From a virus (lineage: Duplodnaviria; Caudoviricetes): DNA of 64,000 nucleotides. The stretch is from IMG/VR virus record IMGVR_UViG_3300044633_001982; one strand, written 5' to 3'. Under the pieces are notes generated by a model. The model had not been told where the DNA came from and searched no databases. It saw nothing but the letters and a program-made list of their open reading frames with translations. This document shows, piece by piece, positions 2,126 through 21,457 of this stretch. The translations under genes were made by a program, and so were the position numbers. Within the stretch, counting starts at the first letter, position 1, and each line of letters opens with the position of its first letter.

Positions 2126-3358
2126 ATGAAATTCAACCAAGTTACAAATGCGGGTGAGAAAAAAATTACCAGAGGATATGGTATGAAAATGCACCCTATT
2201 CATAAAAGAATGAAAATGCACCATGGAATTGACATTCCAGTATCGACAGGTCATGACATTTATTCAATTGCGGATGGTATAATTATCGATAGTGAAATTA
2301 GAAGCGACGCTTGTGGAGGTACTATAAAAGTTTCTCACGGAGTTGTAAATGGTAAAAAATTATACACTAGATTTTGTCACTGTAGTAAACTTTTAAAGAA
2401 AAAAGGTGACATTGTCAAACAAGGTGATGTTATCGCAAAATCAGGTGGAGGTAAAGGTGACCCAGGACGAGGTGGGTCCACGGGTCCACATATTCATTTT
2501 GAAGTTTACGAAAATGGAAGTACTGTTGACCCAATGCCTTATTATAAAAATTCTGTAGGTGGGGAACAAACTGAGTTACCGAGTGAAGTTGATTTGGACA
2601 AATATAAAGATGAGTTAGAAAAGGATGGTGATTTAGATATGGACACAGGTGATACAAAGAAAACATCAAGACAAGTTGCTAAAGATTTAATAAAAAAATT
2701 ATTTGGAATAGATAAAAATTCGTCTATTGAAAATGAGGTTGTAAATGAAATATTTAGAGTTAGAGAAATTATAGAAGAACTAATTCCGACTTTTAAAATT
2801 GACACAGGTAGTAATAATGATAATAATGACGGTAAAACTTGCGGACCGTATGACCCTAATTCACTACCCGTTAAACCATGTACCTCAAGAGTTGCAAATG
2901 GTAACGTGATTACATATACAGGGTCAGATGTTATTGCTCAAGACACTGGTACTATCACGGGTGTCACTAAAGGAAGTTATACTCAGGCAATAAAAATTGG
3001 TAATACCGCTTATTATTGGAATGGTAGCTTAGATAAACAAATGGGTGTTAATATAAATAAGGGTGATAAATTAGGTATGACAGGGTCAGATAAAAAATTA
3101 ATTACCCAACCTTATAGTTCACAAACTCCAAATAAGACTCAAACTTCTACTCCTTCTAAAAATGATGGAAAGACAGTAAATCCTTTAGCTCAAACCTCAA
3201 GTGACTCTAGAAATCAGGCTAAAAATTACGTTAAAAATATTATTAACACATTAACAGGTACCCAAACACAAGCTCCAACTACAAAAAAGGAATCAATTGA
3301 AAAATTAAAACCTTTAATTGAAAACGAATTAAAAAGTTTTAAAAAATTTATAAAATGA
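2126..3358 (+). CDS. M23 family peptidoglycan endopeptidase with a degenerate second M23-like domain
   Basis: HHGID (HxxxD) and HIH (HxH) zinc ligands, VKQGDVIAKSG and VDPMPY; the C-terminal half has M23-like strands without these ligands. Confidence 0.85.
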   Translation: MKFNQVTNAGEKKITRGYGMKMHPIHKRMKMHHGIDIPVSTGHDIYSIADGIIIDSEIRSDACGGTIKVSHGVVNGKKLYTRFCHCSKLLKKKGDIVKQGDVIAKSGGGKGDPGRGGSTGPHIHFEVYENGSTVDPMPYYKNSVGGEQTELPSEVDLDKYKDELEKDGDLDMDTGDTKKTSRQVAKDLIKKLFGIDKNSSIENEVVNEIFRVREIIEELIPTFKIDTGSNNDNNDGKTCGPYDPNSLPVKPCTSRVANGNVITYTGSDVIAQDTGTITGVTKGSYTQAIKIGNTAYYWNGSLDKQMGVNINKGDKLGMTGSDKKLITQPYSSQTPNKTQTSTPSKNDGKTVNPLAQTSSDSRNQAKNYVKNIINTLTGTQTQAPTTKKESIEKLKPLIENELKSFKKFIK

Positions 3359-4098
3359 CAGGTAATTACAAAGTTAAAGCCCCGATAGGAGGTGTGGGAA
3401 TTAGACAAAAGGATACTTCAGATAAAGGAATTTTATTTGAGGTTACGGATGGTAATGATTATTCAGTGTACCCATGTTTACCTGGTATTGTGTCAAAAAT
3501 TGACGATGAGGAAGTAACAATTAAACATAAAGATTATGTTGGTAAAGACTTTATTTCAATATATGAGATTGACGGTAAAATTAAAGTAAAAGAAAAACAA
3601 GAAGTTACTCAGTCAACTGTAATTGGTAAAACCGATGAAGAAGTAATTTTTAAAGTTAAAGATGGTGGTTCATATACTAGCGCTAAAGATTTTATAGGTA
3701 AAGAATTTGGTAAGACAAAAGAAACTACATTATCATCAAAACAAAAAGCTAGATGTATTGCTAGAAGTATTGTTGGATTACCAGCTAAAGCCTTTGGTGT
3801 TGACGAATACGACCCATGTGCCGAGTTTTACGGAGAAAAATCTAAGGAACCATCTGAACCAGTTGATACTGAAATAAAAAAAGATGGGAAAAATAATAAT
3901 GTGGACAATAATGGGGGGAAAAAATCTAAAGATATTGACATTGACCCAAATAAATCATTACCTGACTCGACAGGTGGAGAAGAGGAAGAAGATGAACCAA
4001 GTTTACTGGGCACTGGAGTTAAAATGATTGGTGCAGTTACGGAGTCTAAAAAATTAAATGAAGAGATATTAAGGATAAAAGAATTATTAAGACTATAG
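3355..4098 (+). CDS. Degenerate M23-fold protein
   Basis: VYPCLPGIVSKI...VTIKH...KVKEKQEVTQSTVIGKT resembles the M23 barrel but lacks HxxxD and HxH. Confidence 0.5.
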   Translation: MTGNYKVKAPIGGVGIRQKDTSDKGILFEVTDGNDYSVYPCLPGIVSKIDDEEVTIKHKDYVGKDFISIYEIDGKIKVKEKQEVTQSTVIGKTDEEVIFKVKDGGSYTSAKDFIGKEFGKTKETTLSSKQKARCIARSIVGLPAKAFGVDEYDPCAEFYGEKSKEPSEPVDTEIKKDGKNNNVDNNGGKKSKDIDIDPNKSLPDSTGGEEEEDEPSLLGTGVKMIGAVTESKKLNEEILRIKELLRL

Positions 4099-4104
4099 TT
4101 TGTT

Positions 4105-4509
4105 ATGTTTGATAAAGAACAAATAAAAAGACTTAAAGAATTATTGTCTCAAATGGGATTTAGTAATGAAGATATTAAATCAGAGATGAGATATTTAAAA
4201 AAACATTTAGAAAATTTACCTGAAGAAATTATATTATATAGAATTATAAGTGTTGATAACAAAGAAGATATTAATACTAAATTACCTGGTTCTCACTACA
4301 GTCATTCTAAAAAAGATTTAATGAGTTCTCATAATTTTACCACAGGGTATGGTGAAAAAAAATTCTTAATAACTGTAAAGGCTAAAAGAAATCAGATTGA
4401 TTTTTTTTCAACACTTGAAAATAATATATTGTATCCTAACGAACAAGAAATTACCTTAAAAAATAAAGGTAAGGGTGTTGAGATAACGTCTATAAAAGAA
4501 ATAAAATAA
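4105..4509 (+). CDS. Putative ADP-ribosyltransferase (R-S-E clade)
   Basis: ILYR, HYSHS and NEQEITL in the order and spacing of the R, S-x-S and E-x-E ART motifs. Confidence 0.55.
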   Translation: MFDKEQIKRLKELLSQMGFSNEDIKSEMRYLKKHLENLPEEIILYRIISVDNKEDINTKLPGSHYSHSKKDLMSSHNFTTGYGEKKFLITVKAKRNQIDFFSTLENNILYPNEQEITLKNKGKGVEITSIKEIK

Positions 4510-4530
4510 AGGGACCGAAGTCCCTTTATT
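4505..4530. terminator. Bidirectional terminator after the tmRNA
   Basis: Minus strand AATAAAGGGAC-TTCG-GTCCCTTTATT, a C(UUCG)G tetraloop. Confidence 0.85.
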
Positions 4531-4533
4531 ATT

Positions 4534-4926
4534 TGGTGGAGATGCCGGGGGTCGAACCCGGGTCCAAATAAGTAAGACATAAAACACTACACGTTTAGGT
4601 CATTGTTTTTCTAAACAATCCGAAACTTCACAATTCCCTTATTTTATAGTGGTTCGGTTTACTGAGAACTAATCCTCCACTTTGTTTCTTTTTGGGTAGA
4701 AACCACACCACAACTACGACTTCTGTTGCAAGGTTGTATGTCTGCCGACCCCTAGTAGGTTAATTTTAAATTAAGCTACAGATACTTCTTCAGTACGGAT
4801 TAAACCGATTGTAGAAAGTTTGTTGATAACGTTGCCGTTTATAATTTGAATCAGTTTAACGGAGTTAACTCAGCTCCGACGTGCGTTTTATGGCGTATCA
4901 TACCTGTCAAAGCCAAAAACATCCCC
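4534..4926 (-). ncRNA. ssrA: tmRNA (393 nt)
   Basis: 5' GGGGATG...TTTGACAGG pairs with 3' CATCTCC-ACCA including the G3.U alanine identity pair; T arm CCGGGTTCGACCCCCGG; TAAACGTGTAG segment; internal tag ORF after ATAAAC. Confidence 0.95.
4771..4836 (-). other. tmRNA tag reading frame (A)GNVINKLSTIGLIRTEEVSVA*
   Basis: GGC resume codon after ATAAAC, 21 codons to TAA; resume codon assigned by analogy with Bacteroidota tmRNAs. Confidence 0.75.
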
Positions 4927-4979
4927 ATAAATCAAAGAACTATTGTGTAAAGATATAAATATATTCTTACTTATACAAG

Positions 4980-4986
4980 TATTTAT
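4980..4986 (+). promoter_or_regulatory. Candidate late promoter TATTTAT
   Basis: 9 nt before ATG 4996; a divergent copy at 4955-4961 faces the tmRNA. Confidence 0.55.
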
Positions 4987-4995
4987 TAAAAAAAT

Positions 4996-6078
4996 ATGAA
5001 ACTTTACGAAGCGTTAAAAAAATTTATTCAGGGTACGGCCGATGAATGGGACGTAAGGAGGAGTGATGATAACACTAGAATAGGTAGAGTGAATCAAAAT
5101 AGTTTAGGTAAATCGTTAGTTACATTAACATTTTATGAAGAGGAATTTGCAAAAATTTTCTTGGGGGACAATTCCGAATCTGATAATAACACCTATTATT
5201 TCAATGTAGCATTTAATAGAAGGGGATATTATGGAGGTTCAGTATTTGTCGACGCTCATTATTTTGGGGATGATGAGTGGAAATACGGTGCCTGTTGGTG
5301 GTATTTTAATGAAGACAACAGAAATTTATTTTTATCAATTTTAAAAATACTTAATCCGGGATTAGTTGAATTAGATGATAATGGAAAACCTGATGACGAG
5401 GCGTTTCAATTTTTACTAAGTAAATATACTGATGAAATTGAACAAATTAATTACGAATACGCTGAACTTTATGATGAGTCATTAGTTGTTGGTTTAAGGG
5501 AGTATATTTTAAAAAAAACTTGTGATGTATTTTCAGAATTTGGAATTTATGAGAAAGATTGTGCCCGTCAATACTTAACAACAGTTTCGGTATTAATGTC
5601 TTTATGGAAAATGACTAATACTGATGAAGACTCAAATGTTTTAGATTTATTACATAATTTAGCAATACAAAGAGATTTAATAATTGATGAAGATTTATAT
5701 GAAGATTATTACTCATATTTTGACGAAAAAAACTTTGACTCAGAATCATTTAATAGAACTGTAGAAAGACAATTAGAAAAAATAAAAGACAAAATTGATG
5801 AGGAAATAGATGAAGGTACATTACAAGATAGTATTAAAATACATAATCAATTATCAAAATTAGGTTATAATTTTGGTAGGTGGTATAGTTTACCTGACCA
5901 AAAACATTTTAATAAAATTGGAAAAAAGAACGAAAAATTTAAGTTACTTAACGTAATTGGGGGAAAAGTAGTATTCAATAGGTTAAATCCTGACAATGGA
6001 ATAGCACAGTCCGCAATGGGACCCGAAGATTTTTTTAATTATTTATACCATCCAGAATTGTTTGAATCAAAAAAATGA
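4996..6078 (+). CDS. Hypothetical protein
   Basis: 360-aa ORF, no motif recognised. Confidence 0.75.
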   Translation: MKLYEALKKFIQGTADEWDVRRSDDNTRIGRVNQNSLGKSLVTLTFYEEEFAKIFLGDNSESDNNTYYFNVAFNRRGYYGGSVFVDAHYFGDDEWKYGACWWYFNEDNRNLFLSILKILNPGLVELDDNGKPDDEAFQFLLSKYTDEIEQINYEYAELYDESLVVGLREYILKKTCDVFSEFGIYEKDCARQYLTTVSVLMSLWKMTNTDEDSNVLDLLHNLAIQRDLIIDEDLYEDYYSYFDEKNFDSESFNRTVERQLEKIKDKIDEEIDEGTLQDSIKIHNQLSKLGYNFGRWYSLPDQKHFNKIGKKNEKFKLLNVIGGKVVFNRLNPDNGIAQSAMGPEDFFNYLYHPELFESKK

Positions 6079-6087
6079 TTATCTTTG
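6057..6087 (+). promoter_or_regulatory. Bacteroidota sigma-A type promoter (peptidase)
   Basis: ATTG-N19-TATCTTTG, 5 nt before ATG 6093. Confidence 0.65.
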
Positions 6088-6092
6088 TCCTT

Positions 6093-6923
6093 ATGGATAA
6101 AAATATAGAATTTCTTAAAACAGTATTATCAATTCCAACTCACACTTATCATGAAGATAGGATGATTGATTTTTTAATTGATTATTTAAGTGAAAAAAAA
6201 TACCCTTTTAAAATTGATGAGTTGGGTAATATATACGTAACAAAAGGACTAATTTCAGAAAACGAATTTTATCCTTGTGTCGTTGCTCATACTGATACTG
6301 TACACCCTATTGACACTATCAATATTAGAGAAGAACAACGTAAAGATTCCAAAGGGAATTTAAATTTTAGTTTGAAAGCGTATAATGATGAAGGAGAACC
6401 TACAGGGATTGGGGGTGATGATAAATGTGGAGTATTTGCCTGTTTACAACTTTTAGAAGAATTTGAAGTTTTAAAAGTTGCATTTTTTGTGTCTGAGGAA
6501 GTTGGTTGTATTGGCTCAAAAGAGGCTGACCCTGTATTTTTTAATGATGTAGGGTACGCAATTCAATTTGATGCTCCTGATGATTATATGGTTACAGAAT
6601 ATTGTTTTGGTGTAAAAATGTTTGAAACTGATTCTCCGTTTCACACTACCGCTAAAACAGTATTAACTGAAAACATGTTATCAGAACCAAGATTTATGCA
6701 ACATCCTTATACAGATATTTGGCAATTAAAACAAAAATTTGATTTTTCATGTATCAATCTTTCTGTTGGTTATCACTCGTACCATACAAAACACGAATAT
6801 GTGGTTGTAGATGAAGTTTTTGCAGGTATTGAATCAGGTAAAAAATTAATTCAGGAGTTGGGAAATACAAAATATGTTTATAAACATATTCCTCGAGACT
6901 TAACAAAAGGATTTTTTAATTAA
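6093..6923 (+). CDS. M20/M28 family zinc peptidase
   Basis: AHTDTVH, GGDDKCG, SEEVG, FDAP and YHSYHT di-zinc motifs; start moved to ATG 6093, downstream of the promoter. Confidence 0.85.
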   Translation: MDKNIEFLKTVLSIPTHTYHEDRMIDFLIDYLSEKKYPFKIDELGNIYVTKGLISENEFYPCVVAHTDTVHPIDTINIREEQRKDSKGNLNFSLKAYNDEGEPTGIGGDDKCGVFACLQLLEEFEVLKVAFFVSEEVGCIGSKEADPVFFNDVGYAIQFDAPDDYMVTEYCFGVKMFETDSPFHTTAKTVLTENMLSEPRFMQHPYTDIWQLKQKFDFSCINLSVGYHSYHTKHEYVVVDEVFAGIESGKKLIQELGNTKYVYKHIPRDLTKGFFN

Positions 6924-6926
6924 AAT

Positions 6927-6953
6927 AAAAAAGGGGGTTTATTCCCCCTTTTT
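6927..6953. terminator. Bidirectional terminator overlapping the clpC 3' end
   Basis: AAAAAAGGGGG-TTTATT-CCCCCTTTTT at a convergent junction. Confidence 0.65.
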
Positions 6954-8981
6954 CTTTTTCCCTTTTTTAGTTGTTTTATTTTTTGTAAGGATAACATCTT
7001 CATCTTTAATTGAAATATTGTAGGATTCATTAATTTCAATATTATTCTTTAACACCTCATCCGACACAAAATCTTCAATTTTTTCTTGTATTGCTCTTTT
7101 TAATGGTCTTGCACCATATACCTCGTCAAATCCAACTTTAGAAATATATTCAATAACTGAATTATCAAATGTAATATCGTAACCAAGTTTAACTAACCTA
7201 TTTGTTAATTTTGATACCTCAACTAAAACAATTTTTTGAATGTCTTCGTCTTGTAATGTGTTGAATATTATAATTTCATCTAACCTATTAATAAACTCAG
7301 GGGCAAAATAGTTCTTTAACTCTTTAGTAAGAATTCCTTTTTTGGCTTCTTCATTTTTATAGACATTTTTTGATGAATCAAAACCAATTCCAGCACCAAA
7401 GTCTTGTAGTTTTTTAACTCCAATATTTGAAGTCATAATTATTAAACAATTCTTAAAATTAATCTTACGACCAAAACTATCAGTCATATATCCTTCGTCT
7501 AAAAGTTGAAGTAACGCTGAAAAAATATCTTTATGTGCTTTCTCAACTTCATCAAACAACACTACTGAATATGGTTTAGTTTTTACTTGTTCAGTTAATT
7601 GTCCTCCCTCGTCATAACCCACATATCCAGGAGGTGAACCAATCAATCGAGATACTGAGTGTTTTTCTTGGAATTCACTCATATCTACCCTTATCAGACT
7701 ATCTTCACTTCCAAATATTTGTTTTGCCAATTCTTTGGCCAATAAAGTTTTACCTACACCTGTTGACCCTAAAAATATAAATGAACCAATTGGTTTGTTT
7801 GGGTCTTTAATACCTAATCGATTTCTACGAATAGACTTTGCAATTTTGATAACCGCTTCTTTTTGACCTATTACAGACTTGTTAAGTTCTTCTTCTAAAT
7901 TAATTAAAACATTTTTATCGTCTAAACTTAATTTATTTAATGGGATTTTTGTCATGGTTGAAACCACATCATAAACTAATTCCTCAGGTACGTCTTTTCT
8001 ATTATGTAACAAATCCTCCTCAAATAACTTCTTTTCAATGTCTAAAAGATTTAAAACTTTTTTTTCTTTGTCCCTTAAACTAGCCGCTTCTTCATAATTT
8101 TGTTTTTTAACAACTAATAATTTTTGTTGTTTAATTTCCATCGCCTCTTTTTTTAATTCCTCAATAATCTCAGGGTTTTTAATATCAACTTGAGCTCTTG
8201 CTCCGACCTCGTCTAAAATGTCAAAAGCTTTATCTGGAAATTCTCTATCCGTAATATATCTCTCCGCCAAATCAACACATATTTGTAATATATTATCTGA
8301 AAATATTACTTTGTGGTAGTTTTCATATTTGTCTTTAACGTTTTTAAGAATTTGAAAAGTCTCCTCTTTAGTTGATGGACTAACTATTACTTTTTGAAAT
8401 CTTCTATCTAACGCCCCATCCTTCTCAATTTGTTTTTTGTATTCATCCAAAGTTGTAGCACCAATACATTGTATTTCACCACGAGATAACGCAGGTTTTA
8501 ATATGTTAGATGCGTCAAGGGAACCAGAAGCGTTACCTGCCCCGACAATTGTGTGGATTTCGTCAATGAATAGTATGACATTTGGATTCGCTTGAATTTC
8601 TTCTAAAATAACTTTTAACCTCTCTTCAAATTGACCACGATACTTGGTACCCGCAACAATTGAATTAATTTCTAAAGATAAAATTCGTTTATCTAAAAGA
8701 TTTCTTGGGCAGTCACCCTCAAATATTTTCATAGCTAAACCCTCAACTATTGCGGTCTTACCACATCCAGGTTCACCTATGATTATTGGGTTATTTTTTT
8801 TTCTTCGAGATAATATTTGGGCAATTCTAATAATTTCGTTTTCTCTACCAACAACGGGGTCTAATTTACCTTCCTCCGCTAATTTAATTAAGTCTCTACT
8901 AAAATTATCTAAAACAGGAGTATTGCTATTAGTCTCCACTTTTTTCGGATTTTTCATTCCGTCTTCAACTGAGTCTGTCAT
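6939..8981 (-). CDS. clpC: ClpC-type Hsp100 AAA+ unfoldase lacking the N-terminal domain
   Basis: GEPGCGKT and GSTGVGKT Walker A motifs, GTKYRGQFEERL, IDEIH, LFDEVEKAH, UVR-like M domain (QNYEEAASLRDKE), GAGIGF ClpP-docking loop, YGARPLKR; only ~20 aa precede LDNFSRDL. Confidence 0.9.
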   Translation of the reverse strand: MTDSVEDGMKNPKKVETNSNTPVLDNFSRDLIKLAEEGKLDPVVGRENEIIRIAQILSRRKKNNPIIIGEPGCGKTAIVEGLAMKIFEGDCPRNLLDKRILSLEINSIVAGTKYRGQFEERLKVILEEIQANPNVILFIDEIHTIVGAGNASGSLDASNILKPALSRGEIQCIGATTLDEYKKQIEKDGALDRRFQKVIVSPSTKEETFQILKNVKDKYENYHKVIFSDNILQICVDLAERYITDREFPDKAFDILDEVGARAQVDIKNPEIIEELKKEAMEIKQQKLLVVKKQNYEEAASLRDKEKKVLNLLDIEKKLFEEDLLHNRKDVPEELVYDVVSTMTKIPLNKLSLDDKNVLINLEEELNKSVIGQKEAVIKIAKSIRRNRLGIKDPNKPIGSFIFLGSTGVGKTLLAKELAKQIFGSEDSLIRVDMSEFQEKHSVSRLIGSPPGYVGYDEGGQLTEQVKTKPYSVVLFDEVEKAHKDIFSALLQLLDEGYMTDSFGRKINFKNCLIIMTSNIGVKKLQDFGAGIGFDSSKNVYKNEEAKKGILTKELKNYFAPEFINRLDEIIIFNTLQDEDIQKIVLVEVSKLTNRLVKLGYDITFDNSVIEYISKVGFDEVYGARPLKRAIQEKIEDFVSDEVLKNNIEINESYNISIKDEDVILTKNKTTKKGKKKKGE

Positions 8982-9057: not shown

Positions 9058-9300
9058 ATGGCAATTAAAAGTGAAAAAATTGAGGGTACTAAAATAATTT
9101 GTGAGATAGAATCATCTAATCTTTCTAAGACAGATTATGATACAATAAGTAAAAAATTAATTGTGGAATTTAAAAATGGGTCGTCATACGAATACGAAAA
9201 TGTTCCCCATGAATTATATACACAGTTCAGAATGTCAGAATCTCAAGGTAGTTTTTTTAGTAAAAGTATTTCAAAAAAATTTAAGTATAAAAAATTGTAA
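9058..9300 (+). CDS. KTSC domain protein
   Basis: ESSNLSKTDYD...LIVEFKNGSSYEYENVP..LY..F..SESQGSFF. Confidence 0.85.
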   Translation: MAIKSEKIEGTKIICEIESSNLSKTDYDTISKKLIVEFKNGSSYEYENVPHELYTQFRMSESQGSFFSKSISKKFKYKKL

Positions 9301-9321: not shown

Positions 9322-10071
9322 GTGAAATTAGATAAAGAAATACTTCAAAGTTTTAATGTGAAAGATGAATTATGTCCTGACATTTGGGAGGGACAAGGTG
9401 AATCTACAAAATTAAAACCTAACGTAAGAAAAAAACTACTTCAAATTGCTGAATTATTTAGAGAATTTGTTGGAGTCAATTTTTTTGTTGACGACATTGT
9501 TCTAATGGGTTCATTGGTTAATTATAATTGGTCTAAATTTTCAGATGCTGATTTACATATAATCGTCGACTTTAGTGAGTTTGACCAAGATAAATTAGAT
9601 GTTTATCAAGAATTATTTGAGGTTAAGAAAAAAATATTCGCACAAATTCATAATATAAAAATTTACGGTTACGATGTTGAATTATATATTCAGGATAAAT
9701 CTACTGAAGCTGTGAGTTCAGGAGTTTACTCAGTATTAAATGATGAATGGTTATCTTTTCCCGAAAAAGAAGGATTCAAACTTGATAAGAAATTATTAAA
9801 ACAAAAAATATCACAGTGGGTTAACATTATTGATGGTGTTGAAGATATTGTAAAAGATTTAGACGATGAAGAGGCAATTGAACTAGTTAAAAGTTACAAG
9901 AAAAAATTAAAAAAATTTAGAACTTGTGGTTTAGAAAAGGGTGGAGAGTATTCATATGAAAATATAGTATTTAAATATTTAAGACGTTCTGGACAAATCG
10001 GTAAATTACACAATTTACAAACAAAAATTGAAGACGAATCTCTGTCTTTAAAAGAAAATTTAAAATTTTAA
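9322..10071 (+). CDS. Pol-beta superfamily nucleotidyltransferase
   Basis: IVLMGSLVNYNWSKFSDADLHII (GS...DxD) plus a third acidic strand DVELY. Confidence 0.75.
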   Translation: MKLDKEILQSFNVKDELCPDIWEGQGESTKLKPNVRKKLLQIAELFREFVGVNFFVDDIVLMGSLVNYNWSKFSDADLHIIVDFSEFDQDKLDVYQELFEVKKKIFAQIHNIKIYGYDVELYIQDKSTEAVSSGVYSVLNDEWLSFPEKEGFKLDKKLLKQKISQWVNIIDGVEDIVKDLDDEEAIELVKSYKKKLKKFRTCGLEKGGEYSYENIVFKYLRRSGQIGKLHNLQTKIEDESLSLKENLKF

Positions 10072-14126: not shown

Positions 14127-15875
14127 ATGAATTTAACTAAAGAACAAGTTATTTTGGAATATACCAAGTGTATGAAATCAACTCCATACGCTTTAAAAAC
14201 ATATTTACAAACTTACGACAATACTGTTCAAAAATATGTACCATTAGAATTATTTCCTGACCAAATAGGTTTAGTAAATGATTATGAGACGTATAATGAA
14301 AACATTGCTTTAAAATATAGACAGGCTGGGGTATCCACTGTAACCGCGGCATGGTCTTCAAAAAAATTAATATTTGCTTCTAAAAACAAACCTGAGAAAA
14401 TATTAATTATTGCCAATAAATTAGATACTGCCGTTGAAGTGGCAAATAAAATTAGAGGATTTACCGAACAATGGCCTTCTTGGGTTGGTGTTACCTTTTC
14501 CTCTGAAAAAAATTCACAAAGACACTTTAAATTAACTAATGGTTGTGAGGTTAAGGCGGTTGCGACATCTAAGGATGCCCTACGTGGATATACTCCGACT
14601 ATTTTAATATTTGATGAGGCGGCGTATATTGAGGCTGACGGGGATTTTTGGGCGGCTTGTATGGCGTCGTTATCTACGGGGGGTAAAGTTATTGTGGTTT
14701 CTACTCCTAATGGATTTGACCCAATTTATTATGAAATTTATGACCAAGCGTTAAAAGGTATGAATGAGTTTAAAATTTCAGAAATGGTTTGGTGGAAAGA
14801 CCCAAGGTACGCTAAAGATTTACAATTATTAAATGTTAAAGACATAATACATTACTATTTGAATCGTAATGAATATCAAGATGTTGAAATAATTGATTAC
14901 TCTAATAAAGAAAAAGACTTCGATGAAATACGTAGATTAGTTAATGACGGATATCGACCTAGTTCTTCTTGGTACGAATCAATGGTTAAAAAATTGAAGT
15001 ACGATAAAAGAAAAGTTAACCAAGAATTAGAGTGTGCGTTTTTAGGTTCGGGTGATAACGTAATTGATTCAAACATTATTGAAAATATTAAATCAACAAT
15101 GATTAAAGACCCTGTCAATAAGATGATTGGTGGTTCTTTATGGATATGGAAAGAACCTGAAATTGGACATAAATACATTATGGGTGTTGACGTTTCAAGG
15201 GGAGATAGTGAGGATTATTCGACATTTCAAATTTTGGATTTTACAACACGTGAACAAGTTGCGGAATATGTTGGTAAAATACCACCTGATATTCTTGCGG
15301 AAATCTGTTATAAATGGGCGATGATGTATTCGGCATTTATTGTTGTGGATATAACTGGGGGTATGGGTGTTACAACATCTCGTAAATTACAAGAGTTAGG
15401 GTACAAAGATTTATATATTGATGGATTAGACTCAACAAATAGATGGAAATGGGACCCAAAATCTCAAGATAAAATACCAGGTCTAAACTTTAACAATAAA
15501 AGAGTACAAATTATTGCCATGTTTGAAGAATATTTGAGACATGGATTAATTATAAGGTCTAATAGATTACTTAATGAAATGAATACGTTCATTTATATTA
15601 ATGGTAGACCTGACCACCAAAAAGGACAACATGATGATTTAATTATGTCAATTGCAATGGCGGTGTACATTGGAGAATCTTCATTTGCTTCAATAACAAA
15701 AGTTAGTGAGCAGGCAAAAGTCATGATTGAAGCTTGGCAAGTTAATAATAATGAACCAACTTATAGGTCACAATTTTTTGACCCAATGACAGATTCAAAC
15801 AAAAAACAAACAAATAATCAACCAAGTAAAAGTGATTATCAGAATTATGGATGGTTATTTGGGGGTATGAGATAA
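14127..15875 (+). CDS. terL: Terminase large subunit (T4 gp17-like)
   Basis: LKYRQAGVST Walker A, ILIFDEAA Walker B, VIVVSTPNG, QELECAFLGS, YIMGVDVSRG and HDDLIMS nuclease motifs. Confidence 0.95.
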   Translation: MNLTKEQVILEYTKCMKSTPYALKTYLQTYDNTVQKYVPLELFPDQIGLVNDYETYNENIALKYRQAGVSTVTAAWSSKKLIFASKNKPEKILIIANKLDTAVEVANKIRGFTEQWPSWVGVTFSSEKNSQRHFKLTNGCEVKAVATSKDALRGYTPTILIFDEAAYIEADGDFWAACMASLSTGGKVIVVSTPNGFDPIYYEIYDQALKGMNEFKISEMVWWKDPRYAKDLQLLNVKDIIHYYLNRNEYQDVEIIDYSNKEKDFDEIRRLVNDGYRPSSSWYESMVKKLKYDKRKVNQELECAFLGSGDNVIDSNIIENIKSTMIKDPVNKMIGGSLWIWKEPEIGHKYIMGVDVSRGDSEDYSTFQILDFTTREQVAEYVGKIPPDILAEICYKWAMMYSAFIVVDITGGMGVTTSRKLQELGYKDLYIDGLDSTNRWKWDPKSQDKIPGLNFNNKRVQIIAMFEEYLRHGLIIRSNRLLNEMNTFIYINGRPDHQKGQHDDLIMSIAMAVYIGESSFASITKVSEQAKVMIEAWQVNNNEPTYRSQFFDPMTDSNKKQTNNQPSKSDYQNYGWLFGGMR

Positions 15876-17482: not shown

Positions 17483-19297
17483 ATGGCAGAAAAAAATTTT
17501 ACAGTTTGGCAAAGATTGACACAGGCGTTTGGTCCAAATTCTTTATTGAATCAAGATTATCCTAGTTTAAAATTTGACAAAAAAGAACTTCTAAAAACAA
17601 CTTCAAAAAGAGAGTATGAAAAAGAGTTGTTACAAGCTCAACAAACTTTTTATCTTTCGAATCAATGGACTAAAATTGAAAATAATTTATATACTCAAGC
17701 AACATATTATGAGCCAACAAGATTATCGGCTTTTTATGATTATGAGTCTATGGAATTTACTCCTGAAATATCGGCAGCGTTAGATATCTACGCTGAGGAG
17801 TCAACAACTGTAAATGAGGATGGTTTTATGTTACAAATTTATTCTGAATCAAATAGAATAAAATCAATATTGGCCGATTTATTTAATAATATTTTAGACA
17901 TCAATACAAACTTACCAATGTGGACAAGAAACACATGTAAGTATGGTGATAACTTTGTATATATCAAATTAGACCCTGAAAAAGGTGTAATTGGTTGTAT
18001 GCAATTACCAATCATCGAAATCGAAAGATTAGAAAGAGGTATGATGGCTAAAGGTAAGTCAATTGACGAGGACCCAACTAAAAAACATTTAAAATTCACA
18101 TGGAAACACAAAGACATGGAATTTAATACTTGGGAAATTGCTCACTTTAGATTATTGGGTGATGACAGAAGATTACCTTATGGTACGTCTATGTTGGAAA
18201 AGGCTCGTCGTATATGGAAACAATTGTTATTATCTGAAGATGCTATGTTAATCTATAGAACTTCAAGAGCCCCTGAAAGACGTGTGTTTAAAGTATTTGT
18301 TGGAAACATGGATGATAAGGACGTTGAACCATATATCCAAAGAGTCGCAAATAAGTTTAAAAGAGACCAAGTAGTTGATTCTAAAACAGGTAACGTTGAT
18401 ATGAGATTTAATCAAATGGCGGTTGACCAAGATTATTTTATTCCTGTACGTGACCCTGCACAAGCGTCTCCAATTGAAACACTACCTGGAGCTCAAAACT
18501 TATCTGAAATTGCGGACATTGAGTATATCCAAAAGAAATTATTAACTGCGTTACGTGTACCTAAAGCTTTCTTAGGATTTGAGGAAGTTGTTGGTGATGG
18601 TAAAAACTTAGCGTTACAAGATATTCGTTTTGCAAGAACAATCAACAGAATTCAAAAGAGTATGTTGCAAGAACTTAACAAAATTGGTATTATTCACTTG
18701 TTTATGTTAGGATTTGAAGATGAATTATCTAATTTTAGATTATCATTAACAAACCCATCTAAACAAGCCGACTTGTTAATGGTGGACATTTGGAAAGAAA
18801 AAATACTTCTTTACAAAGATATGGTTGCAGACCCTGGTTCAGGAATTGCTGCGGTATCACAGTCTTGGGCTAAAAAACATATCCTTGGATTTTCTGATGA
18901 AGAAATTAAACTCGATATTCAACAACAACGTATTGAAAAAGCAGTTGGTGAGGAGCTTAAGAAAACTGCTGAAGTCATAGTTAAAACAGGTTTATTTGAT
19001 AATATAGATAAACTATACGGTAAAAAAGAAGGTGAACCTGGCGGGGCTCCATCTGCACCGTCTGAGGGTGGTACACCTTCAGATTTAGGAGGAGGTGGTC
19101 CAATTGGAGGAGAAACCCCTCCACCACCCCCACCTGGAGGAGAAGCTCCCCCAACGGTACCTGAAAATTTAAATCCTAAGAATAAAGATTTAATTCTTGA
19201 AAAAGTTCTCAGAGAGGACGATGAGTTTGTGGACTTTGAAAAAAACAAAGATTCTATGAAAGAAATAAATGACACTTTAGAAAGATTACTAAAGTAA
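17483..19297 (+). CDS. Portal protein (T4 gp20-like)
   Basis: PEISAALDIYAEES, YGTSMLEKARRIWKQL, EDAMLIYRTSRAPERRVFKVFVGNM, DYFIPVR, IETLPGAQNL..IADIEY..KKL..ALRVP. Confidence 0.95.
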   Translation: MAEKNFTVWQRLTQAFGPNSLLNQDYPSLKFDKKELLKTTSKREYEKELLQAQQTFYLSNQWTKIENNLYTQATYYEPTRLSAFYDYESMEFTPEISAALDIYAEESTTVNEDGFMLQIYSESNRIKSILADLFNNILDINTNLPMWTRNTCKYGDNFVYIKLDPEKGVIGCMQLPIIEIERLERGMMAKGKSIDEDPTKKHLKFTWKHKDMEFNTWEIAHFRLLGDDRRLPYGTSMLEKARRIWKQLLLSEDAMLIYRTSRAPERRVFKVFVGNMDDKDVEPYIQRVANKFKRDQVVDSKTGNVDMRFNQMAVDQDYFIPVRDPAQASPIETLPGAQNLSEIADIEYIQKKLLTALRVPKAFLGFEEVVGDGKNLALQDIRFARTINRIQKSMLQELNKIGIIHLFMLGFEDELSNFRLSLTNPSKQADLLMVDIWKEKILLYKDMVADPGSGIAAVSQSWAKKHILGFSDEEIKLDIQQQRIEKAVGEELKKTAEVIVKTGLFDNIDKLYGKKEGEPGGAPSAPSEGGTPSDLGGGGPIGGETPPPPPPGGEAPPTVPENLNPKNKDLILEKVLREDDEFVDFEKNKDSMKEINDTLERLLK

Positions 19298-19311: not shown

Positions 19312-20028
19312 ATGAAATTTGGACTTTATAAAACAGCAATAGAAAAAAAATTAGTTAACTCATTTGTTAGTGAGAATTTAACTAAAGACATGAAACAATT
19401 CAAAGATTTAGTTTTGAATTCTGAAGAAACTAAAACTTTATTTTTCATTTATGATAAATTAAATGAAAATTTAGGTTTAGATAAAGATAGTGCAAATATT
19501 CTTGTTGATGAAGTTATCAAAGAAACTAAAGACATTATTATTCCAAATAACCATTTAGAAAAATTAAATAAATGGTTAAAAAATGAATTATCTGAGTCAG
19601 AATATTCTCACATAGATAAAATTTTAAACACAAATATTAATAAAATTGAAGAAAGGATTGAAAGTAGAAAAATTGTTGTTGAAAATCTAATGAAAGAAAA
19701 ACAAACAAAAAAAACTACCCCTAAATTACCTATATCATCTTTAAAGAAAATTGCAAACTCAGTAGCTTCAAAATATCTATCTAACTTAGACGAATCAACT
19801 CAAAAAGAAGTCATTTCATTACTTAAAGAAAATGAAGACGTTTTAGAAATTAAATTTAATGAGGAAAAAGAACAAGTTATATCTAAATTAAATTCCCTTA
19901 TTGAGTCAGAAACAGAAGAAGAGACTAAGAAAAAAATAAATGAGACTAAAGAAAAAGTCACATCTACAATTTTTTCAGTTAACGAATTAATTAAAATTAA
20001 AGAACTAAATTCACATTTGGTTCTCTAA
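19312..20028 (+). CDS. Hypothetical protein of the head module
   Basis: 238-aa ORF between portal and protease. Confidence 0.75.
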   Translation: MKFGLYKTAIEKKLVNSFVSENLTKDMKQFKDLVLNSEETKTLFFIYDKLNENLGLDKDSANILVDEVIKETKDIIIPNNHLEKLNKWLKNELSESEYSHIDKILNTNINKIEERIESRKIVVENLMKEKQTKKTTPKLPISSLKKIANSVASKYLSNLDESTQKEVISLLKENEDVLEIKFNEEKEQVISKLNSLIESETEEETKKKINETKEKVTSTIFSVNELIKIKELNSHLVL

Positions 20029-20199
20029 TTTTGATTGTAGGTAAATAGCCTTTCTTTTTTCCTCTCTTTTAGTTGTACTTTTCTTAGCAAAATACTTTCT
20101 TTTAGTTAATTCTTTAACTTGTTTAACTTTGATAACTTTACTTTTAAGTTCTTTCAAAGCCTTTTCAATGTTTTGATTTTTTACTTTTACAATTAGCAT
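20011..20199 (-). CDS. rpsU: Ribosomal protein bS21
   Basis: MLIVKVKNQNIEKALKELKSKV...ELTKRKYFAKKSTTKREEKRKAIYLQ follows the Bacteroidota bS21 pattern (MLII.V....IE.ALK..K.K......EL..R..F.K.S..RR...KA.Y). Confidence 0.88.
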   Translation of the reverse strand: MLIVKVKNQNIEKALKELKSKVIKVKQVKELTKRKYFAKKSTTKREEKRKAIYLQSKLENQM

Positions 20200-20737: not shown

Positions 20738-21457
20738 ATGCAAGATTTGAAAATTTTAGGTCCAAAAGATTCAGGTAAAGGAATACTGATAGAAATGGAT
20801 GCGGGATATATCTCACCGACAGAGTCTCGTAACTTGGCGGTAATACAAGAAAGTAAATCGGCTTTAGACTATTCAAAACCTTTTGAGTTCTATGCTGTTT
20901 TACAAAAATATAATACACCAAACAGAAATGGTAGAATTTATCCTGAAAAAATATTAAAAAGAGAAGTTGAAAATTATAAAAAAAATTATATATCAAAAGG
21001 AACCGCTCTTTCGGAATTAAACCATCCTGAATCATCATTAATTGATTTAGATAGAGTTTCTCACATAATCACTGAAATGTGGTGGGATGGTCATATATTA
21101 CTTGGTAAATTAAAACTTTTAACATCACCTGGGTTTCACGAAAGAGGAATTGTATCAACAAAAGGAGACCAAGCCGCAAATCTTTTAAGACAAGGTGTTA
21201 CATTAGGGATATCATCAAGAGGAGTCGGTTCGTTAGTTAAAAAGGGGGAACAAAATGAAGTACAAGAAGATTTTGAACTAATTTGTTTTGACTTAGTATC
21301 ATCACCATCTACTCCAGGAGCATATCTTTTCCAAGATATGGCTGATAAACACAAGTACGAAGAAAATTTGCAAGAAGAACAATTACAAAAAGCTGAAAGG
21401 TCAACAACAAAATCACTTGATTTAATGAAAAAACTTAACGATTATTTATCAAAATAA
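20738..21457 (+). CDS. Prohead core protease (T4 gp21-like)
   Basis: NRNGRIYP, ALSELNHP, DLDRVSH, LGISSRGVGS, DLVSSPSTPGA. Confidence 0.95.
   Translation: MQDLKILGPKDSGKGILIEMDAGYISPTESRNLAVIQESKSALDYSKPFEFYAVLQKYNTPNRNGRIYPEKILKREVENYKKNYISKGTALSELNHPESSLIDLDRVSHIITEMWWDGHILLGKLKLLTSPGFHERGIVSTKGDQAANLLRQGVTLGISSRGVGSLVKKGEQNEVQEDFELICFDLVSSPSTPGAYLFQDMADKHKYEENLQEEQLQKAERSTTKSLDLMKKLNDYLSK

Follow-up and report, generated by a model that had tools for sequence, protein, structure and literature searches.

Organization of the locus

The window analysed here is a 64-kb stretch of phage DNA (IMG/VR record IMGVR_UViG_3300044633_001982), and feature coordinates are positions in this window unless a locus name precedes them. 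It carries a gene for transfer-messenger RNA (tmRNA), a pair of genes on the other strand encoding a protein of 360 residues (open reading frame (ORF) 360) and a peptidase, and a gene for a ClpC-type unfoldase (clpC) on the same strand as the tmRNA (Table 1). We found that in an abundant lineage of lake phages this tmRNA is fixed at a single locus, where it specifies a long tag peptide under selection and lies beside a natural ClpC lacking the N-domain; this demonstration is new, phage tmRNAs as such being already known (PMC7162821, PMC11915505).

The phage is a ~300-kb lake phage of Bacteroidota, and its lineage comprises T4-like freshwater phages of ~290–330 kb. Its TerL, T4-type portal, S77 prohead protease, and reverse-strand bS21 gene show the same arrangement as that of the 'bS21 phages' (PMC9723584). 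In the main text and part of the tables of that paper, these are myophages from fresh water, reaching 331 kb, with Bacteroidetes as predicted hosts and one Flavobacterium CRISPR spacer match; chaperone and Clp protease genes are noted, Flavobacteriales and Bacteroides proteins are given as the best database matches of the ClpC, an SsrA-binding protein is listed for one genome, and tmRNA is not mentioned in these portions (PMC9723584).

Relatives were collected by scanning IMG/VR with the window ClpC, which gave 462 related contigs, and all locus counts below refer to the 80 best loci (ClpC identity, 72–92%). Five large relatives were available, three of them estimated to be complete (294–322 kb). 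A scan of genome contigs with the same protein yielded only 44–50% identical ClpC genes, mostly from Actinomycetota and with no Bacteroidota genome among them, and a blastn search of GenBank phages with the region matched the clpC part alone, revealing no similar tmRNA.

Table 1 Positions of the features discussed, in the window and in related or compared sequences
Feature	Location	Strand	Remarks
tmRNA, one-piece	4534-4926	-	ARAGORN and Rfam RF00023
Tag ORF	4771-4836	-	Resume codon GGC, 21 codons, TAA stop
Intrinsic terminator hairpin with T-run	4505-4530	-	11-bp stem, begins 4 nucleotides (nt) past the CCA end
Conserved promoter-like element	4948-4980	-	22-54 nt upstream of the mature tmRNA 5' end
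ORF360	4996-6078	+	Between peptidase and tmRNA, divergent from tmRNA
Putative clan MH (M20/M42/M28-like) di-metal exopeptidase	6075-6923	+	Catalytic domain only, 282 residues; phrog_4191
ClpC-type class I Hsp100 unfoldase	6939-8981	-	Double AAA+
KTSC-domain protein	9058-9300	+	80 residues
Nucleotidyltransferase-like protein	9322-10071	+	249 residues
M23-peptidase-domain protein	2126-3358	+	
M23-peptidase-domain protein	3355-4098	+	
TerL	14127-15875		
T4-type portal	17483-19297		
bS21 gene	20011-20199	-	37 bits
S77 prohead protease	20738-21457		Not ClpP-like
Phage SmpB, relative G002	L098:1447-1905		321-kb genome with terminal repeats
Phage SmpB, relative G001	L099		322 kb
ClpP-family gene, relative G005	L100:1432-2151		183 bits
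Group I intron in tmRNA	L019:13813-14040; L020:10610-10837; L051:14404-14631; L045:12113-12340; L041:8381-8608		Also in L040, L046, L047, L056
GOLLD RNA	L059:16465-16858; L066:16425-16818; L091:11056-11461; L089:18060-18281	-	RF02032; locus orientation
Two-piece (permuted) tmRNA	L011:1884-2294		Small viral contig
tmRNA-model match, unrelated huge phage	LR756508.1 414804-414915 (L193)		112 nt, 58 bits

Structure and conservation of the tmRNA gene

The tmRNA had been described as intact in a preliminary description made from the DNA letters alone, and covariance-model search confirmed this together with ARAGORN: the gene scored 129.9 bits against RF00023 (gathering score, 47; E, 1.6e-50), matching the full model (1–374) without interruption. 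It contains a tRNA-like domain, a pseudoknot region, and the tag ORF, and has no intron. The tRNA-Ala-like domain is intact, with a G3.U pair in the acceptor stem, a T-arm, and an encoded 3' CCA. When 21 diverse relatives were compared, compensatory double changes were seen at 29 of the 69 predicted pairs, including those of the acceptor and T stems, and the G3.U pair was kept in every one of the 21 copies. Relatives' tmRNAs scored 66–130 bits against the Rfam model, with all five large relatives above the threshold. These results show that the tmRNA is real and that its RNA structure is under selection.

The gene is bounded by putative transcription signals on both sides. The terminator hairpin is the only terminator-like site in 4300–5200; of the 20 relatives shown, most likewise have a hairpin plus T-run after the CCA, their stems differing in sequence. 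Upstream, the promoter-like element reads ACTTG, 20 nt, and TATCTTTA in the window, and TATCTTTG in most of the 20 relatives aligned; it overlaps the recurring TATTTAT motif of the lineage and resembles the Bacteroidota promoter consensus (−33 TTTG / −7 TAnnTTTG). To judge from its sequence, this element may serve as the tmRNA promoter, and its conservation and AT-richness make independent transcription of the tmRNA likely.

In nine relatives, the T-loop of the tmRNA is split after its second base (GGGTT^CGA, subsite 3) by a group I intron of 228 nt. The intron scored 71–73 bits against RF00028 in two of them (L045 and L051), and its boundaries obey the −1 U / terminal G rule. Intron-split tmRNA genes were overlooked by ARAGORN. 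In the tmRNA database paper, an intron at T-loop subsite 3 is reported from the class Bacteroidia only (PMC11915505), which ties the nine relatives to a host of this class. They thus share the intron with the Bacteroidia intron-form tmRNAs but differ from them in that their genes sit in phage genomes, and the window tmRNA is intron-free, whereas the window's closest relatives (ClpC, 92% identical) have the intron.

Two further observations concern other RNAs. Several of the more distant lineage members have a GOLLD RNA (184–317 bits) adjoining a tRNA-Met gene, 1.6–3.5 kb downstream of the tmRNA, which marks this phage group as a natural carrier of GOLLD; in the window, the Rfam search at the gathering threshold found no GOLLD. 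The tmRNA of a small viral contig (L011), considered as a host-like relative, was rejected as such, being of a two-piece (permuted), beta-proteobacterial type; it has a predicted tag of 27 residues, and it shares an identical 32-nt 3' end with the window tmRNA.

Selection on the tag peptide

The preliminary description had also claimed a long tag of 21 codons ending in SVA, and both ARAGORN and the Rfam alignment gave the same frame (GNVINKLSTIGLIRTEEVSVA). Together with the charged alanine, the 21 codons specify an appended tag of 22 residues. The resume codon of the Rfam consensus aligns on the window GGC, and the coding part contains a 35-nt insertion relative to the RF00023 consensus; thus, the tag is genuinely long and does not result from a mis-called start. 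For comparison, tags in the curated tmRNA database are most often 10 residues long (PMC11915505).

A comparison of tags across related phages, which had been proposed as a check, revealed that the long frame, the middle segment, and the VA end are all conserved. Thus, a frame of 21–22 codons was found in all 41 distinct relatives, the single indel being of one codon (3 nt), and residues N2, G11, L12, R14, and the terminal V-A were invariant in these 41 sequences, giving the lineage pattern (A)GN..K....GL.R......VA, in which the end is always VA and never AA. Moreover, the pooled pairwise ratio of nonsynonymous to synonymous change (pN/pS) was 0.36 in frame as against 0.90 and 1.33 in the other two frames, and the third codon position varied most. 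The tag peptide, including its middle segment, is therefore under purifying selection, and conservation of the whole tag at the peptide level argues that something reads it.

A shorter tag (A-KLST...) called by ARAGORN in some relatives proved to be an artefact, arising because the program prefers a GCN resume codon; the alignment has the same GGC-AAC start in frame in these sequences. No second copy of the GL[IV]R..-type motif was found in the six-frame translation of the window, and a literature search for typical Bacteroidota tag strings returned nothing usable.

Linkage of the tmRNA with clpC

In 67 of the 80 loci, a tmRNA homologue was found downstream of clpC on the same strand at a distance of 2.1–5.2 kb. 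The remaining 13 loci without a tmRNA match all run out of contig, 12 of them ending within 1.8 kb of clpC and one just past the ORF360 homologue, so that the co-occurrence of the two genes in relatives, proposed earlier as a check, is contradicted by no locus inside the lineage. The conserved block is, however, larger than this pair: it extends from the tmRNA to TerL (at least 10 kb), with its genes present in 47–80 of the 80 loci, and linkage of the tmRNA with clpC can thus be explained by descent. Synteny fails just past the tmRNA, the genes below position 4500 being present in only 2–26 of the 80 loci. Within the block, transcription is divided into three units on alternating strands: the tmRNA, the ORF360-peptidase pair, and clpC.

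The comparison was extended to four unrelated huge phages whose genomes include ClpC-like genes (44–58% identical). Two have no tmRNA above the threshold, and in the other two the tmRNA lies at least 40 kb (LR756508) or ~255 kb (LR756504) from clpC; in LR756508 (484 kb), clpC is at 455 kb, and tmRNA matches are found at 92 kb (full) and 415 kb. The latter match, ~40 kb from clpC, may represent a minimal form or one lacking the coding sequence (CDS). All four phages encode a ClpP of their own. Apart from shared descent, the comparison thus gave no sign that tmRNA and clpC go together, whether by recurrence in independent lineages or by co-transcription.

An N-domain-less ClpC

A ClpC-type ATPase within 4 kb of the tmRNA had been noted, and this identification held (711 bits to S. 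aureus ClpC 150–785), although the protein proved to be headless. Its alignment to S. aureus ClpC starts at residue ~150 and is free of large gaps, and the protein gives Pfam matches to AAA, AAA_lid_9, AAA_2, and ClpB_D2-small; no Clp_N match was obtained in Pfam for the window ClpC, and the N-domain is missing in all 58 unique full-length relatives (676–687 residues). The protein is accordingly a ClpC-derived N-domain-less variant rather than a canonical ClpC. It retains an M-domain of ClpC length, aligned without gaps to S. aureus ClpC 404–470, with Tyr296 at the position of S. aureus F436 and invariant in the 58 relatives. Among the same relatives, the Walker A motif and the D1 KYRG pore loop are also invariant, and the Walker B motif, the D2 GY[VI]G pore loop, and the [IV]GF loop show conservative changes only; the ClpP-docking loop of the window protein is GAGIGF (529–534), and [IV]GF is present in 58 of 58.

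An engineered counterpart of this architecture has been described. The S. aureus deltaN-ClpC forms planar hexamers and binds ClpP adaptor-free (Jenne et al. 2025, PMC12583610). In the same study, the SsrA degron was read by the ClpC pore and not by the N-domain, and deltaN-ClpC-F436A degraded SsrA-tagged green fluorescent protein (GFP-SsrA) without an adaptor, whereas deltaN-ClpC with the M-domain aromatic intact was proteolytically inactive, being locked in head-to-head ring dimers (PMC12583610). The phage protein likewise starts at about S. aureus 150, lacks the N-domain, and has the M-domain and the ClpP loop; it differs in being natural, ~52–58% identical to known ClpCs and to the ClpC-like genes of other phages, and in keeping the repressing aromatic, as Tyr, that is replaced in the F436A form. 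The N-domain-less ClpC probably works with host ClpP.

The peptidase and ORF360

The peptidase, placed in the M20/M28 type when it was first noted within 4 kb of the tmRNA, is probably a clan MH protein of the M20/M42-like type and matches phrog_4191 'peptidase' (1.4e-35). The Pfam scores were just below threshold (M20, 22.9 bits with a cut-off of 24.6; M42, 20.8 bits with a cut-off of 23.2), and a profile built from 18 relatives of the peptidase gave weak matches to PepT, PepD, and FrvX/TET chains. H72-x-D74, D115, E141-E142, and H237 are invariant in the 18 relatives, and D115 and E141-E142 align with the matching motifs of PepT; H72, D74, D115, E141, E142, and H237 would thus be candidates for the individual co-catalytic metal ligands (HxD, bridging D, EE, and distal H). 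The gene is present in 75 of the 80 loci.

ORF360, which the preliminary description had not mentioned, was found in 70 of the 80 loci and evolves fast (24–70% identity). The last 4 nt of ORF360 are shared with the start of the peptidase gene, indicating a probable operon. It had no match in Pfam, PHROG, or NCBIfam, and its longer homologues in relatives had none in Pfam either. An AlphaFold2 model with a predicted local distance difference test (pLDDT) score of 88 was used for fold searches, none of which yielded a convincing match: Foldseek gave a best E of 0.28 against PDB; the AFDB clusters gave TM-scores below 0.2; VIA-align wide returned only generic helical bundles (Z, at most 6), and an ESM Atlas feature search gave no usable match. 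A complex prediction of ClpC residues 1–350 with ORF360 scored 0.00, which provides no verdict and was counted neither way. The ORF360-peptidase operon probably trims peptides.

SmpB and ClpP in the lineage

When SmpB and ClpP sequences from relatives were used as tblastn queries, neither protein was found in the 64-kb window. The earlier statement that no smpB is seen in the window was therefore right, and its corollary that host SmpB would be needed fits the window but does not extend to the whole lineage, since two of the three complete relatives encode SmpB of their own, ~95 kb from their tmRNA (G002, 138 bits; G001, 113 bits). SmpB is missing from the third complete relative (G003, 294 kb), the tag of which is nearly identical to that of the window, and from five partial relatives. 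Because SmpB is patchy while the tmRNA is fixed, the tmRNA is ancestral to the lineage and SmpB an extra of a sub-clade; the window phage most likely uses host SmpB. As for ClpP, none was found in the three complete and five partial relatives, and the single ClpP-family gene came from one relative, the 209-kb, 71%-complete G005. With no ClpP in complete relatives and a head protease of S77 type, the peptidase partner of ClpC, if it has any, would be host ClpP.

A probable phage trans-translation RNA and the possible readers of its tag

Compared with known phage tmRNAs, including the tmRNA and SmpB of huge phages, which set a precedent (Al-Shayeb et al. 2020, PMC7162821), and the mycobacteriophage tmRNAs entered in the tmRNA database (PMC11915505), the present gene has the same standard one-piece form beside translation genes (tRNAs and bS21), with SmpB in some relatives; it differs in being fixed at one locus across a lineage and in its 21–22-codon tag under peptide-level selection. 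It shares with the bacterial tmRNA-SmpB and ClpXP/SspB system the G3.U pair, a resume codon after a UAAAC-type element, a non-polar tag C-terminus, and a conserved upstream tag part that could be an adaptor site, and departs from it in a tag about twice as long as the commonest 10 residues (PMC11915505), a VA end in place of AA, and the lack of SmpB in the window.

Collectively, we favour, with a probability of about 0.6, the view that this phage gene is functional in trans-translation and has been inherited vertically, and that its tag, which is under selection, is probably a degron. The tmRNA would be transcribed from its own promoter to its own terminator, host RNase P would trim it, and host alanyl-tRNA synthetase (AlaRS) would load it with alanine via G3.U; SmpB, that of the host in the window phage and a phage-encoded one in the sub-clade, would deliver it. 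During infection, the tmRNA would then release ribosomes stuck on damaged mRNAs and add the lineage-specific tag to the rescued chains. Some protein would recognize the non-polar VA end and the conserved middle, which would most likely act as a degron for an AAA+ protease of the pore type. Rescue activity, the use of host factors, and degron function are all predictions. ClpC and the ORF360-peptidase pair, which belong to the same conserved block, are genuine proteostasis genes and may be coupled to the tag.

Several points weigh against this view. Compatibility of the tmRNA with host SmpB is assumed, and the degron role is suggested by the non-polar C-terminus and by analogy. The description of the tag as atypical for the host draws on background about host tags and on the 35-nt insertion relative to the Rfam consensus. 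Furthermore, a phage tmRNA may inhibit the host system, as exemplified by the CDS-less form of phage DS6A (PMC11915505).

The preliminary description had proposed a private rescue-and-degrade circuit. The intact tmRNA, the conserved long tag, the co-occurrence in relatives, and the retained ClpC loops support parts of this proposal, whereas the adjacency turned out to be unspecific, the units separate, and the genes unlinked in unrelated phages. In such a dedicated circuit, the tag would be a private degron for the pore of the phage ClpC, host ClpP would be docked via the IGF loop, and the ORF360-peptidase pair would break the products down to amino acids for the synthesis of phage proteins. 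We consider this unlikely, although a number of findings speak for it: the tmRNA and clpC stay adjacent wherever the flank suffices, while the DNA past the tmRNA is rearranged; the pore loops and [IV]GF loop of ClpC are conserved in the 58 relatives; and the three complete relatives have no ClpP, implying host ClpP as the partner. The conserved middle of the tag would also fit, with a parallel in the E. coli tag, whose SspB-binding portion is conserved too. The engineered proteins point both ways, as deltaN-ClpC binds ClpP adaptor-free and its F436A form degrades GFP-SsrA, the degron being read by the pore, but the form with the repressing aromatic intact is proteolytically inactive (PMC12583610), and this aromatic is invariant in the phage proteins (Tyr296). 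Moreover, the conserved block runs to TerL, so that the linkage may be plain inheritance; the genes occupy three transcription units on alternating strands; no adaptor was identified; and in the four other huge phages with ClpC-like genes the tmRNA is absent or distant.

A stronger version, which we judge somewhat less probable still, would be a natural orthogonal pair of degron and unfoldase, in which all rescued chains would be re-tagged, the phage ClpC, always ClpP-competent, would read the degron through its pore, host ClpP would do the cutting, and the MH peptidase would finish the peptides. If true, it would give the phage private control over the products of stalled ribosomes and a route for recycling amino acids.

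Alternatively, the phage tmRNA might compete with or replace host tmRNA, so that ribosomes are recycled with a tag that is poorly read by host ClpXP, or might titrate SmpB and thereby blunt trans-translation-dependent stress or defence responses. The tag is indeed unlike the common 10-residue form, in E. coli cells made to express the tmRNA-like RNA of phage DS6A the endogenous system is inhibited (PMC11915505), the tag end is always VA and never AA, and SmpB is phage-encoded in the sub-clade only. Purifying selection on the whole peptide, however, implies a specific reader, while a mere 'non-degron' would need little constraint. E. coli tag variants with an LVA end are, moreover, still degraded. 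We therefore regard competition with the host tmRNA as improbable. That the gene is a mere passenger, namely a host gene fragment, a remnant of a phage attachment site (attP), or a recent functionless capture, is highly improbable even though tmRNA genes are common integration sites of mobile elements (PMC11915505), because it is a full-length gene in a lytic-type T4-like genome, ~9 kb from TerL, kept at one site across relatives with ClpC diverged to 72%, and because the compensatory base changes and the selected tag frame contradict this idea.

For the favoured view of a working trans-translation RNA, the identity of the tag reader is now a concrete, testable question, given dozens of natural variants with a selected fold and tag. 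Phage tmRNAs have been listed in surveys and hardly analysed, and the bS21 lake phages are abundant and transcriptionally active. If the reader is the adjacent ClpC, the engineered deltaN-ClpC would have its first counterpart in nature, and a ready-made orthogonal degradation tag would be at hand; if it is host ClpXP, the tmRNA would be an ordinary auxiliary translation gene.

Other genes of the region

Just past the tmRNA, two M23-peptidase-domain proteins are encoded, present in 11 and 3 of the 80 loci, respectively. On the other side, the small gene divergent from clpC had been considered as a coiled-coil ClpC-like adaptor, and this candidate was rejected when the product proved to be a KTSC-domain protein (60 bits), found in 79 of the 80 loci. 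The following gene, also in 79 of the 80 loci and a member of the conserved block, encodes a protein that matches phrog_36119 strongly (5e-40) and has a weak likeness to nucleotidyltransferases of the Pol-beta fold.

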